From a virus (Duplodnaviria; Caudoviricetes): a stretch of DNA of 59,180 bases. The stretch covers positions 1-59,180 of the IMG/VR virus record IMGVR_UViG_3300007514_000009; one strand, given 5' to 3'. The notes beneath the pieces were generated by a model. The model had not been told where the DNA came from. It made no database searches and saw nothing but the letters and a program-made list of their open reading frames with translations. Of the stretch, positions 3,220 to 59,170 are shown piece after piece. Made by a program: the position numbers and the translations under genes. The number at the start of each line of letters is the position of its first letter. Position 1 is the stretch's first letter.

Positions 3220-4114
3220 TATGATTTTAGCCGCACGGCTGTTTGAGAAGGGCGATATGACTCAGAAAGCGTATATCCCTCAACTTAGAGGCGGTTCTGG
3301 TCTTATGGAATATGGCAAGAATCTCGCTACTGGTGCGGCGAGGAACGTAGTGGGAGCGGTGCGAGACAAGTTAGACCCGCTCGCGGAGCAGGGTCAAAGG
3401 GCGCGGCATCCCGGTTTGCCAGCCGAAGGCGCACCACTCCCTAACACTCCTTCACAGGCGGCGAATCTTGCAGCCATAGACCCATCACGGGTAGCCGCAC
3501 CACCCACACCGGCCGCAACTGCCCCTGTGAATCAACCCGTTGGAGGGCCACAGCAAGACACCAATAATGATGGGCAACTTACAGCCGATGATACTCAGGA
3601 GCGAACTATGAACACAGAGGTGAAGCAGACGCTCGCACCCGATGGTTCTGTGGATACCACTCAAACTACTCACACTACAACAGATAAGAATGCAGATGGA
3701 TTGGATGATACCACTGGTCAGCCAGTCAATTCGCCCGACCCTAATACCAATGCTACACCCACACCTACTACACCAGCGGCCAAACCCGCTACACCGGCCA
3801 AACCGACAGCGACTCAGAATATGGCTGGAAGGCAACAGGTGGCTAACGCTCAGAAACTAACCGAAACGGGTCACGGGGGGTTGTTGGCCAACATAGCGGG
3901 GTTCGGATTACCTGCAATGTATGGTGCGTATCAACGCCGTAAGGGACACAAACAATTAGCAAATCTGGCCGCAGGGGCTGGTGGGCAAACAAATGCCAAT
4001 ATGATTCGTGCTGACGGAACGGAGTTCTTGGACGATTACTGGAATCTCCAGAAAGCCAGAATGGAGGCCCGTGAGCGAGGAACCACGGAGGCCATTCGCA
4101 ATGCCTACCGATGA
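3212..4114 (+). CDS. Hypothetical Pro/Thr/Gln-rich protein (300 aa), possible internal/ejected virion protein
   Basis: ORF overlaps the previous stop. It has a disordered centre and a Gly/Ala hydrophobic patch (GGLLANIAGFGLPAMYGA), with FEKG and LQKA sites near the two ends. Confidence 0.75.
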   Translation: MDDMILAARLFEKGDMTQKAYIPQLRGGSGLMEYGKNLATGAARNVVGAVRDKLDPLAEQGQRARHPGLPAEGAPLPNTPSQAANLAAIDPSRVAAPPTPAATAPVNQPVGGPQQDTNNDGQLTADDTQERTMNTEVKQTLAPDGSVDTTQTTHTTTDKNADGLDDTTGQPVNSPDPNTNATPTPTTPAAKPATPAKPTATQNMAGRQQVANAQKLTETGHGGLLANIAGFGLPAMYGAYQRRKGHKQLANLAAGAGGQTNANMIRADGTEFLDDYWNLQKARMEARERGTTEAIRNAYR

Positions 4115-5645
4115 CTTATTTGAAGCCGCGTGGGAGGCTGTGTATGATGTCGAAAAGGGATTTTTCGATGATTTCAAGGCCGCAAGGCAGCATTACAACA
4201 CGCAGAGAGTCGCGCAGGACGCACACAACAGAGTATATGCCAATGCACTCCAGCAATTATGGAGAGAGAAAGCCCCCGGCCTCCCTACTATGGATGAGTA
4301 TCGGGCCGCCTTGCACAACGATGCGCTTTACCCAGAATCGGCACAAATAACAGAGGACGACTCCCCAGACGACTCCCCAGACGACCCTCCAATGGGCGTG
4401 GAACAAGCATTACAGATTCTCGCACCGGATCCACCCGAAGGTGTCGTAGTGCCGGATGTTGATGAGATAGTCGTGCCAAAAGAGGCCGAACAAATTAGTG
4501 AGCCTCCGGTGGAAACGGGCGAATCAACCCCTCCATCAGAGCGTATAACAGAACAAATCAGTAAGCCTCCAAAACCGCCTGAAGGCGCAACGGCTCCAGA
4601 GCCGGGTGATATTGTTGATACGACTGAAACCCTGCCTGAATCTGAGCCGGAGCCACTTGATGATGATGCGACCCCTACGAATGAATCGGAATTAGATGAT
4701 TTTGCCGAAGAAGTTGCAGGTCAGCCCAGACCGACAGAGCAAACGGGCTTTCAATTCCCAACGTCGCAAGACAAATTGACTGGCCATAAGCACAAAGGAG
4801 GTCTGAGACAAGCCCAGACGAGTCTCACTGATTCGCCAATGGAGGCATTACAACACGCAGAGAAAGTCCCTTTGATGGATGTTCAAGGCAATCCTGTCAA
4901 AATGGGCAAACGGACTGGTTGGTATGCTCGTATGAGTAAATCCGGCAGAGGTGTGGAGGTGTTCAACGAAGCAGAACCAAAGGAGGCATGGCCAGTTGAG
5001 GATGTTATGAGGACTGCTGGTGTGACTAATCAGTGGGGCAGCCCTGTGAATCTTCCAAGTGGCACACCCCAATTACCCACAAAGAAAATCGGCCCTGCAA
5101 CAAGCGGGAATTGGATTCATCCCGCCAAAAGAAAAGCGAAACATATGCAGGATCATTCAACAAGAGGTATGACCGAAATGCGCGATGGAGAACGGGTATT
5201 AGGAGAAGCAGGGCTGAAGGAGATGGATAAGCGACGGAGAGCCGTGGAGAGTGAAACCCGAAACCGGAAACCCGTAGGAACGGGCGTCTATTATCCAATG
5301 CCCGGAACCTATGCATTAGATCGAAAAACGGGCGAGAAGATCGCAAGCGAATCAATGGCTGTGGATGATGCATGGACTGTTGTGAAGAACCCTCACGCTA
5401 ATCCATTCACTGATTTCAATAGTGTTCTTGCTATCAATGAGCAGAAACCGCCCGAAAGAGCATTTACACCCTCAGACCCAATAATCATGAAGGAGGAAAC
5501 GCCGTTGCAGAAACTCAGACAGAATGGATTTGATATGAATCAGGGCGATAATTTGTCGTTATTGCCGTCCAATATGCTTCTGGATGAGGATATGGGGATA
5601 CAGGATAATATGAGTCTGCTACCTACGGGGTGGCGGAATGAGTGA
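4101..5645 (+). CDS. Acidic/Pro-rich protein (~514 aa) carrying the FxxAW..K motif at the N-terminus and internally
   Basis: The ATG at 4101 follows GGAGG (4087-4091) and is preferred over the track start at 4008. N-terminus is MPTDDLFEAAWEAVYDVEKG; internal AVDDAWTVVKN lies at about 5358-5390. Confidence 0.8.
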   Translation: MPTDDLFEAAWEAVYDVEKGFFDDFKAARQHYNTQRVAQDAHNRVYANALQQLWREKAPGLPTMDEYRAALHNDALYPESAQITEDDSPDDSPDDPPMGVEQALQILAPDPPEGVVVPDVDEIVVPKEAEQISEPPVETGESTPPSERITEQISKPPKPPEGATAPEPGDIVDTTETLPESEPEPLDDDATPTNESELDDFAEEVAGQPRPTEQTGFQFPTSQDKLTGHKHKGGLRQAQTSLTDSPMEALQHAEKVPLMDVQGNPVKMGKRTGWYARMSKSGRGVEVFNEAEPKEAWPVEDVMRTAGVTNQWGSPVNLPSGTPQLPTKKIGPATSGNWIHPAKRKAKHMQDHSTRGMTEMRDGERVLGEAGLKEMDKRRRAVESETRNRKPVGTGVYYPMPGTYALDRKTGEKIASESMAVDDAWTVVKNPHANPFTDFNSVLAINEQKPPERAFTPSDPIIMKEETPLQKLRQNGFDMNQGDNLSLLPSNMLLDEDMGIQDNMSLLPTGWRNE

Positions 5646-58347: not shown

Positions 58348-58544
58348 TGGTCAAACCATATAGGGACAAGATAAGTCAGGACTGCCCCAAGTGCAGCGAA
58401 CGTGTCTTGGCCATCAGAATCAATGGTTTCTATGCTGGTTCCCGTGACCGTATATTCCTCTGGGAATGCCCACTTTGCGAGGAAGTATGGCGAAAGACAC
58501 GCCCTAAACTCAAAGAAGAAGTGTCCGAGATTGAATTATCATGA
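58347..58544 (+). CDS. Zn-ribbon protein (65 aa)
   Basis: CPKC...WECPLC..VW; coupled at both ends. Confidence 0.8.
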   Translation: MVKPYRDKISQDCPKCSERVLAIRINGFYAGSRDRIFLWECPLCEEVWRKTRPKLKEEVSEIELS

Positions 58545-59170
58545 GCGATGCCTTTGAGGTTGCTTGGGACGTTGTGAAGAACGAGGAGAAGCGTTCGGGC
58601 AATCGTTTCAAGGGCTACTCAAAGAATCGTATTAGTGGTCGCGCAGAGCGGGCAGGTAAAGCACGGGCGTGGAGCCAGAGCCGCAAGGTGAAGCGAGGCA
58701 GGACACGCAAGCGATATGCTCGCAACAAAACACGAGGTAATGTCCGACCTAAGTTGCGTCGGCAGTTAGGTGCGGGCGGTGAGCGCATACAAGTCAAGAA
58801 AACAGACGAGAATAGGCCCACGATTCCAACCAAATGGCGAAGAAAAAAACCCACTGCGCGTGAATCACCTGAAAGAGTAGGGGCAGTAGGGCGTTCAATT
58901 TACGGGAGAGGTGGCAGCGCGGGCCGAACTACTGGCCCAACTGGTGAGCCTCTGCGTGAATCTCTCTATTGCATACGGCCTAACTGTGACAGAAAACTCT
59001 CTGACTCATCTGCTCGCAGACCAGCCCGAATACGACAGTGCGGTTCTTGTGCGAGAGTGCTTGGCCTGAAAGGTCTGGAGGACAAACGAATCGAGCATTT
59101 GCGCCTCATGCGAGAGCAGAGAGCAGGGGATACTGGCAGTGTTGATCCCGGTGATGTCGCGCCCACATGA
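58541..59170 (+). CDS. Arg-rich protein with N-terminal MSDAFEVAWDVVK motif and a C-terminal Cys4 finger
   Basis: ATGA overlap; protamine-like basic tract; CIRPNC...CGSC. Confidence 0.8.
   Translation: MSDAFEVAWDVVKNEEKRSGNRFKGYSKNRISGRAERAGKARAWSQSRKVKRGRTRKRYARNKTRGNVRPKLRRQLGAGGERIQVKKTDENRPTIPTKWRRKKPTARESPERVGAVGRSIYGRGGSAGRTTGPTGEPLRESLYCIRPNCDRKLSDSSARRPARIRQCGSCARVLGLKGLEDKRIEHLRLMREQRAGDTGSVDPGDVAPT

Follow-up and report, generated by a model that had tools for sequence, protein, structure and literature searches.

A strictly conserved N-terminal leader on unrelated proteins of magroviruses, a candidate signal for loading cargo into the virion

Introduction

Why would otherwise unrelated proteins of one virus begin with the same short peptide? 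The question is raised by a 59,180-bp stretch of viral DNA (Duplodnaviria; Caudoviricetes), which is the whole of the IMG/VR record IMGVR_UViG_3300007514_000009 and which we call the window. All 40 genes called in the window are on the plus strand, and coordinates given below refer to the window unless another locus is named. A preliminary description had pointed to five dissimilar genes with a common N-terminal peptide ending in Lys, and had proposed that this peptide is a portable tag which brings interchangeable cargo into the prohead of an archaeal virus and is removed by cleavage after the Lys.

We found that the tag is real and under selection at the protein level, that it is portable between genes, that it is specific to magroviruses and that it sits on the structural-gene strand of their genomes. 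Magroviruses are among the most abundant archaeal viruses of the surface ocean, with hosts in Marine Group II (Poseidoniales). As to function, we favor a propeptide for virion loading, similar to the capsid targeting sequence (CTS) of phage T4 and cut after its Lys. Binding, cleavage, packaging and injection are all inferred steps, and we put the probability of this reading at about 45%. A leader or targeting motif is not described in the main text of the magrovirus articles searched (where the word 'N-terminal' occurs 0 times) or in the texts reached by wider full-text searches.

Results

The tag in the window

Five ATG-started genes, at 4101, 9966, 20211, 56129 and 58541, have N-termini of the form F-x-x-[AI]-W...K, in agreement with the preliminary description. 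The regular expression F..[AI]W.{2,9}K had 5 matches in the six-frame translation of the window, and all 5 start at residues 3–7 of these five genes. Enrichment was assessed against shuffles, as had been suggested: the 5 N-terminal matches compare with a mean of 0.002 (0.28 for matches anywhere), and none of 2000 shuffles of the 40 proteins reached 5. We also built a position-specific scoring matrix (PSSM) from the tags of relatives alone (101 sequences, none of them from the window). With a threshold of at least 10 bits it gave 5 matches in the window versus 0.07 per shuffle, namely the N-termini of g8, g40, g36 and g21 and an internal site in g4.

The two highest-scoring copies open small basic proteins. 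The tag of g8 (9966..10286; 106 aa), MTAFDQAWSVVK followed by R (nt 9966–10001; 30.6 bits), precedes a very basic, probably disordered body, and the gene directly abuts the stop codon of the portal gene. The tag of g40 (58541..59170; 209 aa), MSDAFEVAWDVVK followed by N (nt 58541–58579; 30.5 bits), precedes a body extremely rich in Arg and Lys. In g36 (56129..56773; 214 aa), placed after an open reading frame (ORF) of 2241 aa, MVFERAWAVAK followed by G (nt 56129–56161; 25.4 bits) leads into an acidic body that belongs to a BLASTP cluster of 5. The shortest of these proteins, g21 (20211..20438; 75 aa), lies between genes on the head-completion side and g22; its tag MTDFNKIWEDIVK, followed by G (nt 20211–20249; 10.7 bits), is succeeded by a Cys-rich segment and a basic tail.

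The fifth gene, g4 (4101..5645), encodes an acidic, low-complexity protein of 514 aa directly upstream of the large terminase gene. Its N-terminal copy, MPTDDLFEAAWEAVYDVEK followed by G (nt 4101–4157), is degenerate, with longer spacing, and scores 4.2 bits; homologues of g4 have canonical tags at this place. The same protein was said to contain an internal copy, AVDDAWTVVK, and this holds: MAVDDAWTVVK|N (nt 5355–5387; aa 419–429) scores 15.0 bits and is kept in g4 homologues.

BLASTP showed no relationship among the parts following the Lys, as originally described, and none of the five tagged proteins was assigned to a Pfam or PHROG family. The tight coupling of these genes could also be confirmed; their stop and start codons overlap or abut those of neighbors, an arrangement of translational coupling. 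Shine-Dalgarno-like motifs (GGAGG or GGTGA) upstream of g4, g8 and g36 support the start codons of these three genes.

Several weaker resemblances had been listed as variants of the tag, and most of them did not hold up. The FLDDYWNLQK stretch at the C-terminus of g3 (4025–4054) and the stretch NAWAYSGTDLLK of the major capsid protein (MCP) are both outside the 30 best PSSM rows and are not copies of the tag; in the latter the 'AW' is lost in a divergent lineage. For g9 (10327..10671), which begins MSDGFDILVK followed by MNP, the claim stood in part. The A-W pair is missing, whereas a short N-terminus ending in hydrophobic-hydrophobic-Lys and followed by M-[DN]-P is kept in relatives (FEIIAK|MDP, GLIQK|MDP, MDLLK|MNP); judged from these sequences, the g9 leader may end in a site for a protease. 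Another gene, g11 (11170..11490), encodes a coiled-coil-like protein (106 aa) that begins with MTDDTQQAMELVK followed by E; this N-terminus resembles the tag weakly and by eye only, its PSSM score being not significant.

Extent and conservation of the tag in relatives

The sample of relatives consisted of 164 fetched loci, taken together with the window, and of 114 further loci from a scan of IMG/VR with a DNA pattern encoding the degenerate peptide M-x-x-F-[DE]-x-A-W-x-hydrophobic-[VAM]-K. In the first set 121 of 142 matches to the regular expression were within 6 residues of an upstream Met. The scan found at least 118 stretches with up to 8 matches per stretch; the 114 new loci had 367 tags in 1.03 Mb, and on 105 of them we observed homologues of magrovirus proteins.

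Over all fetched loci there were at least 386 distinct complete tagged proteins with a median length of 144 aa (range 39–690 aa). All except one had a mature part of at least 25 aa, and these 385 mature parts fell into at least 153 BLASTP cargo clusters, 97 of which were singletons. Together with the differing cargo at syntenic sites and one orthologue lacking the tag (see below), the 386 proteins in 153 clusters bear out the proposal that the tag is portable and its cargo interchangeable.

The consensus is M-[TS]-A-F-[DE]-x-A-W-x-[LIV]-[VLAM]-K, 11–13 residues long, with Phe as residue 4 in 286 of the 386 proteins. Ala was present in 384 and Trp in all 386, figures that are partly forced by the search pattern; unforced positions are biased as well, with Ala before the Phe in 254 proteins and Asp or Glu after it in 347. 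Conservation stops sharply at the Lys and the sequence beyond is variable, P1' and P2' being mostly A/M/E/G/S and D/P/E, respectively. Codons differ synonymously among copies (TTT/TTC, GAT/GAC/GAA/GAG, GCN, AAA/AAG), which indicates selection on the peptide.

The cargo of g40 was found both with and without the tag. In the window it follows the tag as ...VVK-NEEKRSGNRFKGYSKNRISGRA, while the orthologue in a related genome (G001) starts MTK-NEDKGKFTGYSRNTISGRA. As the tag-less orthologue begins at the Lys, we place the boundary of the module at this residue.

Extra internal copies of the tag were seen in ten of the 386 proteins. The longest protein, a Cys-rich ORF of 690 aa (L218:7408–9480, minus strand), has an N-terminal tag and three internal copies ∼150 aa apart; these repeats, S-G-D-x-F-E-D-x-W-x-[IV]-[AT]-K, give it the appearance of a polyprotein made of tag-plus-domain units in tandem. 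In one ORF an internal tag immediately precedes an M-P-Y-H domain of the ADP-ribosyltransferase (ART) kind described below. That internal copies are kept fits a processing or docking site within a polyprotein; were the motif functional solely as a free helix at the N-terminus, it would be expected to decay at internal positions.

Tag-like I-F-D-L-A-W-G-[VL]-[VI]-K motifs were also seen inside large hydrophobic ORFs at five loci (L168, L217, L230, L235 and L277). Magrovirus homologues were absent from four of the five, L168 being the exception; the motifs probably reflect an unrelated family or chance matches to the DNA pattern.

Position of tagged genes and specificity to the virus

In nine large records of the window's group we counted 16, 6, 17, 16, 11, 11, 11, 4 and 3 matches, and in five records of a sister lineage (protease ∼41% identical) 0, 3, 6, 3 and 1. 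In these 14 records 106 of the 108 matches were on the structural-gene strand; a control with the reversed pattern gave 1 match. Gene maps of three near-complete genomes have the replication module, with a chaperonin (E-value 2.7e-136) and a UvrD-like helicase, on one strand and a single long structural unit on the other. The structural strand had 40 tagged genes among 188, the replication strand 1 among 140 (Fisher p = 8e-10).

The structural unit opens with tandem, often overlapping arrays of 8–13 tagged genes, 100–300 aa each, adjoining the divergent junction with the replication module. The majority of tagged genes are in these arrays, and the genes of terminase, portal, protease and MCP are located 15–20 kb downstream. 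Single tagged genes occur elsewhere: upstream of the terminase (family of g4), after the portal (family of g8) and after giant fibre-like genes. At the site between homologues of g20 and g22 relatives carry variable small Cys-rich tagged cargo.

In the three genomes G001, G003 and G004 (loci L280–L295) a conserved block of untagged genes lies between the tag arrays and the terminase; it includes a protein starting with M-x-G-R-[QR]-T-R-[KR]-N-C-x-F-C-x-H-P. A gene of 268–281 aa is located within or beside the array region of G003 and G004.

With the same DNA pattern a scan of 596 Gb of cellular sequence found 93 stretches, where ∼70 would be expected by our own arithmetic with uniform base frequencies. 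All were single matches except two stretches of one contig with 4 matches each. Matches in cellular genomes are thus at chance level, from which we conclude that the tag belongs to the virus and is not a host signal. The exceptional contig (106,262 bp; L315, L328) is from a Poseidoniales single-cell assembly, and it has homologues of magrovirus genes and 17 tags in 16 kb. It resembles a magrovirus genome inside, or attached to, a single Poseidoniales cell and as such would link virus and host directly.

Identity of the window and neighboring genes

The MCP of the window (16957..18117; HK97 fold, Pfam SU10_MCP) is 33.8% identical to the MCPs of the haloarchaeal viruses HCTV-1 and HVTV-1. The same relationship, ∼33% identity to MCPs of haloarchaeal siphoviruses, is given for magroviruses in the article of Philosof et al. 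(PMC5434244), which describes the majority of magrovirus genes as having no recognizable relatives. At least 262 relatives of the MCP are present in IMG/VR; the best 80 are 80–100% identical to it, several of them on contigs of 90–108 kb. Close relatives (MCP 81–87% identical) are 90–108 kb long and encode a chaperonin, while the window holds the structural strand only. Given the published MCP relationship and the length of these relatives, we characterized the window as the structural half of a magrovirus genome.

The genes of the large terminase subunit (5638..7053; Pfam Terminase_6C), portal (8307..9965; Pfam Phage_portal, PHROG 18178), protease and MCP are all present in the window and make up a structural module as in magroviruses. 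With the MCP identity, this module upheld the earlier assignment to magroviruses. Further along the same strand are three giant ORFs of 4298, 2167 and 2241 aa (22285–35181, 42907–49410 and 49404–56129), presumably fibre or large tail proteins; their homologues in relatives vary in length and in some cases there are two genes instead of one. A protein of 65 aa, g39 (58347–58544), has sub-threshold matches to treble-clef zinc fingers (DUF4379, DUF7479); it is kept beside the homologue of g38 in all three mapped genomes with 66–76% identity.

The cargo

The tagged cargo is diverse in composition. Of the window's proteins, g8 and g40 are extremely basic, as is the tail of the Cys-rich g21, and two others, g4 and g36, are acidic. 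Across the set of 385 mature parts, net charge per residue exceeds +0.10 in 35 and is below −0.10 in 101; two or more CxxC motifs are present in 73 and HExxH in 21.

The largest cargo family, with 44 members and several copies per genome, starts with K-[MA]-P-x-[YF]-H-G-T...I...G-L-x-P. Its profile search against PDB gave Tpt1/KptA, an RNA 2'-phosphotransferase (E-value 2e-4), and the ADP-ribosyltransferase DarT1 (E-value 3e-3). An AlphaFold2 (AF2) model (predicted local distance difference test, pLDDT, 83.7; predicted template modeling score, pTM, 0.79) had Foldseek matches to 18 chains with E-value of at most 1e-3; the 16 listed were all Tpt1/KptA, the best with E-value 1.6e-5 and template modeling (TM) score 0.50, and weaker rows were PARP14, DarT1 and an Rhs ART toxin. 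Outside the tag, His16 and Gly30 are invariant in 29 sequences, Gly17 and Thr18 are conserved in at least 90% and Ile26 is nearly invariant; among the same 29 sequences, considered for the R-H-R-R tetrad of Tpt1 or H-Y-E, we saw no invariant Glu, Tyr or Arg. We consider it established, at the level of profile and structure prediction, that this family has a Tpt1/KptA/DarT-like ART fold, with enzyme activity only predicted.

Other families gave less. Ten array proteins had no Pfam domain above threshold, only sub-threshold rows of GNAT and others. Cargo cluster 4 was tried as GNAT and not accepted, as 1 of its 16 members matched with E-value 0.0038, below the cut-off, and the PDB profile rows had E-values of 0.16 or higher; it is a weak lead only. 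For cargo cluster 3 the PDB profile search was empty, and its AF2 model (pLDDT 68) had no Foldseek match with E-value of at most 1e-3.

The prohead protease and motifs ending in Lys

The product of g14 (15539..16918) is an S78 (HK97-type) prohead protease (Pfam Peptidase_S78, PF04586; E-value 2.8e-9; 37.8 bits versus a cut-off of 21; residues 27–179) with a scaffold-like C-terminal part. Over its ∼280 aa this part has first an acidic linker, rich in Lys and Glu and prone to gaps, and then a coiled-coil-like C-terminus that is conserved; from its sequence g14 is probably a protease-scaffold fusion.

Conservation points to four candidate self-cleavage motifs in g14: DFILK (15593–15607, coordinates derived by hand from the g14 sequence), YTILK (16058–16072), NKYVIK (16463–16480) and NKNVIK (16523–16540). 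K23 (D-F-I-L-K|Q) and K178 (Y-T-I-L-K|M-D), which bracket the S78 catalytic domain, are invariant in g14 and 36 homologues, the most distant 27% identical, and again in a separate alignment of 14 distant homologues. Of the 25 sequences listed, 24 retain the linker islands G-N-K-Y-V-I-K and G-N-x-N-V-I-K. In the MCP the sequence TDLLK followed by AD (nt 17053–17067), no copy of the tag, is a possible maturation site; L36, K37, A38 and D39 are invariant, and HVTV-1 has ...M-S-K followed by A-D (ADNLL) at the aligned place. The capsid protein of HK97 itself is matured by a cut after Lys103.

The [LIV]-[VLAM]-K ending common to the tag, g14, the MCP and g9 suggests a protease that cuts after hydrophobic-hydrophobic-Lys; the S78 enzyme would thereby trim itself, the MCP and the tagged cargo.

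Discussion

Possible function of the tag

We propose that the peptide would serve as an amphipathic docking helix, portable between genes and with a cleavage site after it, fused to many unrelated accessory proteins; small basic proteins, Zn-ribbon-like proteins and proteins with ART fold are among them. The helix would dock onto part of the prohead as this assembles (the likeliest partner being the protease-scaffold protein or the inside of the capsid shell), and the cargo would thus be enclosed. The S78 protease would cut after the Lys, freeing the cargo within the head, and the cargo would enter the Poseidoniales cell with the DNA, to act in DNA condensation, host takeover or counter-defence.

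The AF2 model has the tag helical at residues 3–11, with F4, A7, W8 and V11 on one face of the helix. The spacing F-x-x-x-W-x-x-hydrophobic resembles that of the p53 helix that binds MDM2, a pocket-docking helix, and the strictness of Ala and Trp argues for one specific receptor. The virion-loading reading is consistent with the bias to the structural strand, the T4-like cargo (small basic proteins and a family with ART fold), the internal copies, the Lys motifs bracketing the protease domain and the absence of the tag from cellular genomes. A prediction of the complex of g14, MCP and residues 1–40 of g8 scored 0.04 and 0.00 against a mark of 0.32, without controls, and speaks neither for nor against binding. 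In its most general form the proposal is that one universal label of 12 residues would load at least 153 cargo families, several ART-fold paralogues per genome among them, into the prohead, where the HK97-type protease would cut after the Lys, the cargo being injected with the DNA; this generalization we hold tentatively, at somewhat less than even odds.

A number of observations weigh against virion loading. The large arrays are at the start of the structural unit, beside the replication junction, and in many viruses it is early genes that occupy a position beside such a divergent junction. None of the 17 structural-region genes inspected in HVTV-1 is tagged, and this virus has a homologous MCP and an annotated head maturation protease; similarly a 95.7-kb record of the sister lineage (G010; L401), 90% complete, has 0 tag matches despite having protease, MCP and chaperonin. 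These two cases indicate that a protease of this kind does not entail the tag. Across 1.04 Mb, the 80 sister-lineage protease loci found by profile search contain just 3 tags. Members of the ART family have a gap of only 2–3 residues between the tag Lys and the H-G-T motif, so that the tag could be regulatory instead. Pro is at P2' in 87 of the 385 proteins. The hydrophobic-hydrophobic-Lys motif is short and often expected by chance, and structural demands could account for its being invariant in the protease. The N-terminus of the MCP is conserved throughout, so K37/A38 is not singled out as a cut site; for this reason, and because HVTV-1 has two K|AD sites, we dropped the MCP N-terminus as evidence of cleavage.

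The tag-free G010 is a natural comparison genome. A search of the sister lineage with the single query P0123 gave no loci. By eye we saw no alternative shared leader on two sister-lineage loci; no formal motif search was made.

In the main rival to virion loading the helix docks onto a hub other than the capsid, be it the viral group II chaperonin, a different conserved protein of the virus or some host machinery, and the tagged enzymes act in the cell and are neither packaged nor cut by the prohead protease. We rank it first among the alternatives because the arrays occupy a place common for early genes and because a chaperonin is found in almost all genomes (gene of PF00118 in 12 of the 14 large records); overall we consider it unlikely, yet deserving serious attention. 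The position of the arrays is typical of early or host-takeover genes, and the cargo with ART fold, possibly also that with GNAT-like or HExxH features, would suit effectors acting after infection. The invariant F/A/W face implies one pocket and leaves its owner unspecified. On the other hand, a hub of this kind accords poorly with 1 tagged gene in 140 on the replication strand and with the single tagged genes found inside head and tail blocks in translational coupling with the genes of portal, head completion and fibre. The sharp end at the Lys and the conserved internal copies also fit a cleavage site better than pure docking. With respect to the chaperonin as the hub, it is present in the record with 0 tags as well, and in only 12 of 26 magroviruses in the set reported by Philosof et al. 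(PMC5434244). Being found in 12 of our 14 records, the tag-less one included, the chaperonin is uninformative as a discriminator, and we set it aside in this role. We know of no chaperonin that uses an N-terminal address peptide.

Cargo could also be loaded into the virion with the tag retained, or be loaded into the tail lumen or a portal-proximal channel and not into the head. Payloads of contractile injection systems, with their N-terminal signals, are a reported precedent of loading outside heads. The location of g36 and g40 downstream of tail and fibre genes, and that of g21 between the head-completion side and g22, would agree with such a route, and strand association, virus specificity and portability of the tag apply to it equally. 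Still, up to 17 tagged proteins per genome, of 100–300 aa each, are much for the lumen of a tube. Processing is suggested by the internal copies and by conservation ending exactly at the Lys, and the hydrophobic-hydrophobic-Lys motifs of the protease suggest a cut site of its own. We regard this alternative as rather improbable.

Being short, N-terminal and amphipathic, and made of Phe, Trp, aliphatic residues and Lys, the peptide might be taken for a general membrane-binding helix or for a secretion or pilin-type signal to the cell envelope; archaeal class III signals end in Lys or Arg followed by a small residue. In all five window proteins, however, the Lys is followed by polar, charged or Cys-rich sequence with no hydrophobic stretch; the hydrophobic core of ∼10–20 residues after the charged region, by which Sec, Tat or class III signals are recognized, was not found, and for this reason we rate the possibility very low. 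Furthermore, the near-invariance of Ala and Trp and the acidic residue after the Phe are far stricter than membrane helices need, and matches in cellular genomes, archaeal ones included, are at chance level.

Conservation at the nucleotide level (an element for translation initiation or other RNA function, or a recombination site), chance or annotation artefact can practically be dismissed: the motif is located exactly at start codons, where RNA features act, but the synonymous differences between copies essentially refute the former, and the 1 reversed-pattern match against 108, as well as shuffles that never reached the observed count, contradict both.

Significance

A single leader groups 3–17 genes per record, in the nine records of the window's group, into one class. 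If the tag is a loading signal, it identifies what uncultured viruses inject into very common archaea of the ocean, predicts ADP-ribosylation of host targets and a precise cut site of an S78 protease, and offers a minimal tag for encapsidating foreign proteins in HK97-type shells. As a label for prohead loading it would represent the first effector-delivery system of an archaeal virus, convergent with the T4 CTS and with trafficking domains of polymorphic toxins. If it is not a loading signal, a motif so strictly conserved and so widely reused still needs a receptor, and this receptor would be a new hub of virus–host interaction.

Comparison with known systems

The closest functional parallel is the CTS of T4. 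In the account of PMC9026906 it is an N-terminal propeptide of 10–19 residues in the basic internal proteins IPI–III and of 7 residues in the ADP-ribosyltransferase Alt, which targets these proteins to the core of the prohead and is cleaved off by the prohead protease. According to the same source, residues near the N-terminus target the protein and residues at the end of the CTS form the protease site; fusion to the CTS leads to packaging and injection of foreign proteins; related phages carry different sets of internal proteins with CTS-like leaders; and the cargo, small basic proteins at ∼300 copies per head and an ADP-ribosyltransferase, is dispensable. The magrovirus tag is likewise a short N-terminal peptide on otherwise unrelated proteins in a virus that encodes a prohead protease; the kinds of cargo are similar and we propose the same two-part logic.

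There are clear differences as well. The T4 cleavage logo is Leu/Ile-x-Glu ('LIE-9'), as presented in PMC9026906, while the magrovirus tag ends in [LIV]-[VLAM]-K. T4 is a phage of bacteria and uses the gp21 protease, while magroviruses have an HK97-type S78 protease and an archaeal host. The gp21 protease belongs to a Pfam family other than Peptidase_S78. Conservation of the magrovirus tag is also far stricter, and its copies are far more numerous (as many as 17 in a genome; 153 clusters); its function is a proposal, while that of the CTS was demonstrated. As there is no sequence likeness to the T4 CTS or to its cut site, we consider the relationship an analogy, not homology.

The giant phages phiKZ and SPN3US have proteases similar to T4 gp21 that make small-x-Glu cuts, long dissimilar propeptides and many paralogue families. 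Many of the proteins inside their heads undergo cleavage by the prohead protease and are ejected into host cells (PMC7411985, PMC5694885, PMC10052503); in the portions of these reports that we covered no single portable leader of 12 residues is described, unlike the case of the magrovirus tag.

In phage P1 an N-terminal region of DarB is reportedly sufficient for packaging, and we know of no short motif shared there by many cargo families. The Dar anti-restriction proteins are described as being built into the capsid in the course of morphogenesis and delivered with the DNA, in a hierarchical manner via DarA and Hdf (PMC12810830). The likeness to magroviruses is in accessory anti-defence proteins being carried in the capsid; the hierarchy of P1 incorporation is unlike the mode of action proposed for the magrovirus tag.

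The combination of a constant address module with interchangeable cargo, by which the cargo comes to lie within a protein shell or an injection device, is found, too, in MuF-domain polymorphic toxins of temperate phages, cargo-loading peptides of encapsulins, encapsulation peptides of bacterial microcompartments and contractile injection systems with their N-terminal payload signals. The shells of encapsulins have the HK97 fold, and encapsulin peptides are usually C-terminal and uncleaved; microcompartment encapsulation peptides are short N-terminal amphipathic helices; the MuF domain has ∼300 residues. To our knowledge, none of these modules has the motif F-x-x-A-W-x-hydrophobic-hydrophobic-K, and a MuF (SPP1 gp7-like) domain was not found among Pfam matches above threshold on 5 window and 10 array proteins. 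Capsid cargo with an address tag is thus known from other systems; new here are its candidate occurrence in archaeal viruses, the S78 protease and a tag that is very strictly conserved and widely reused.

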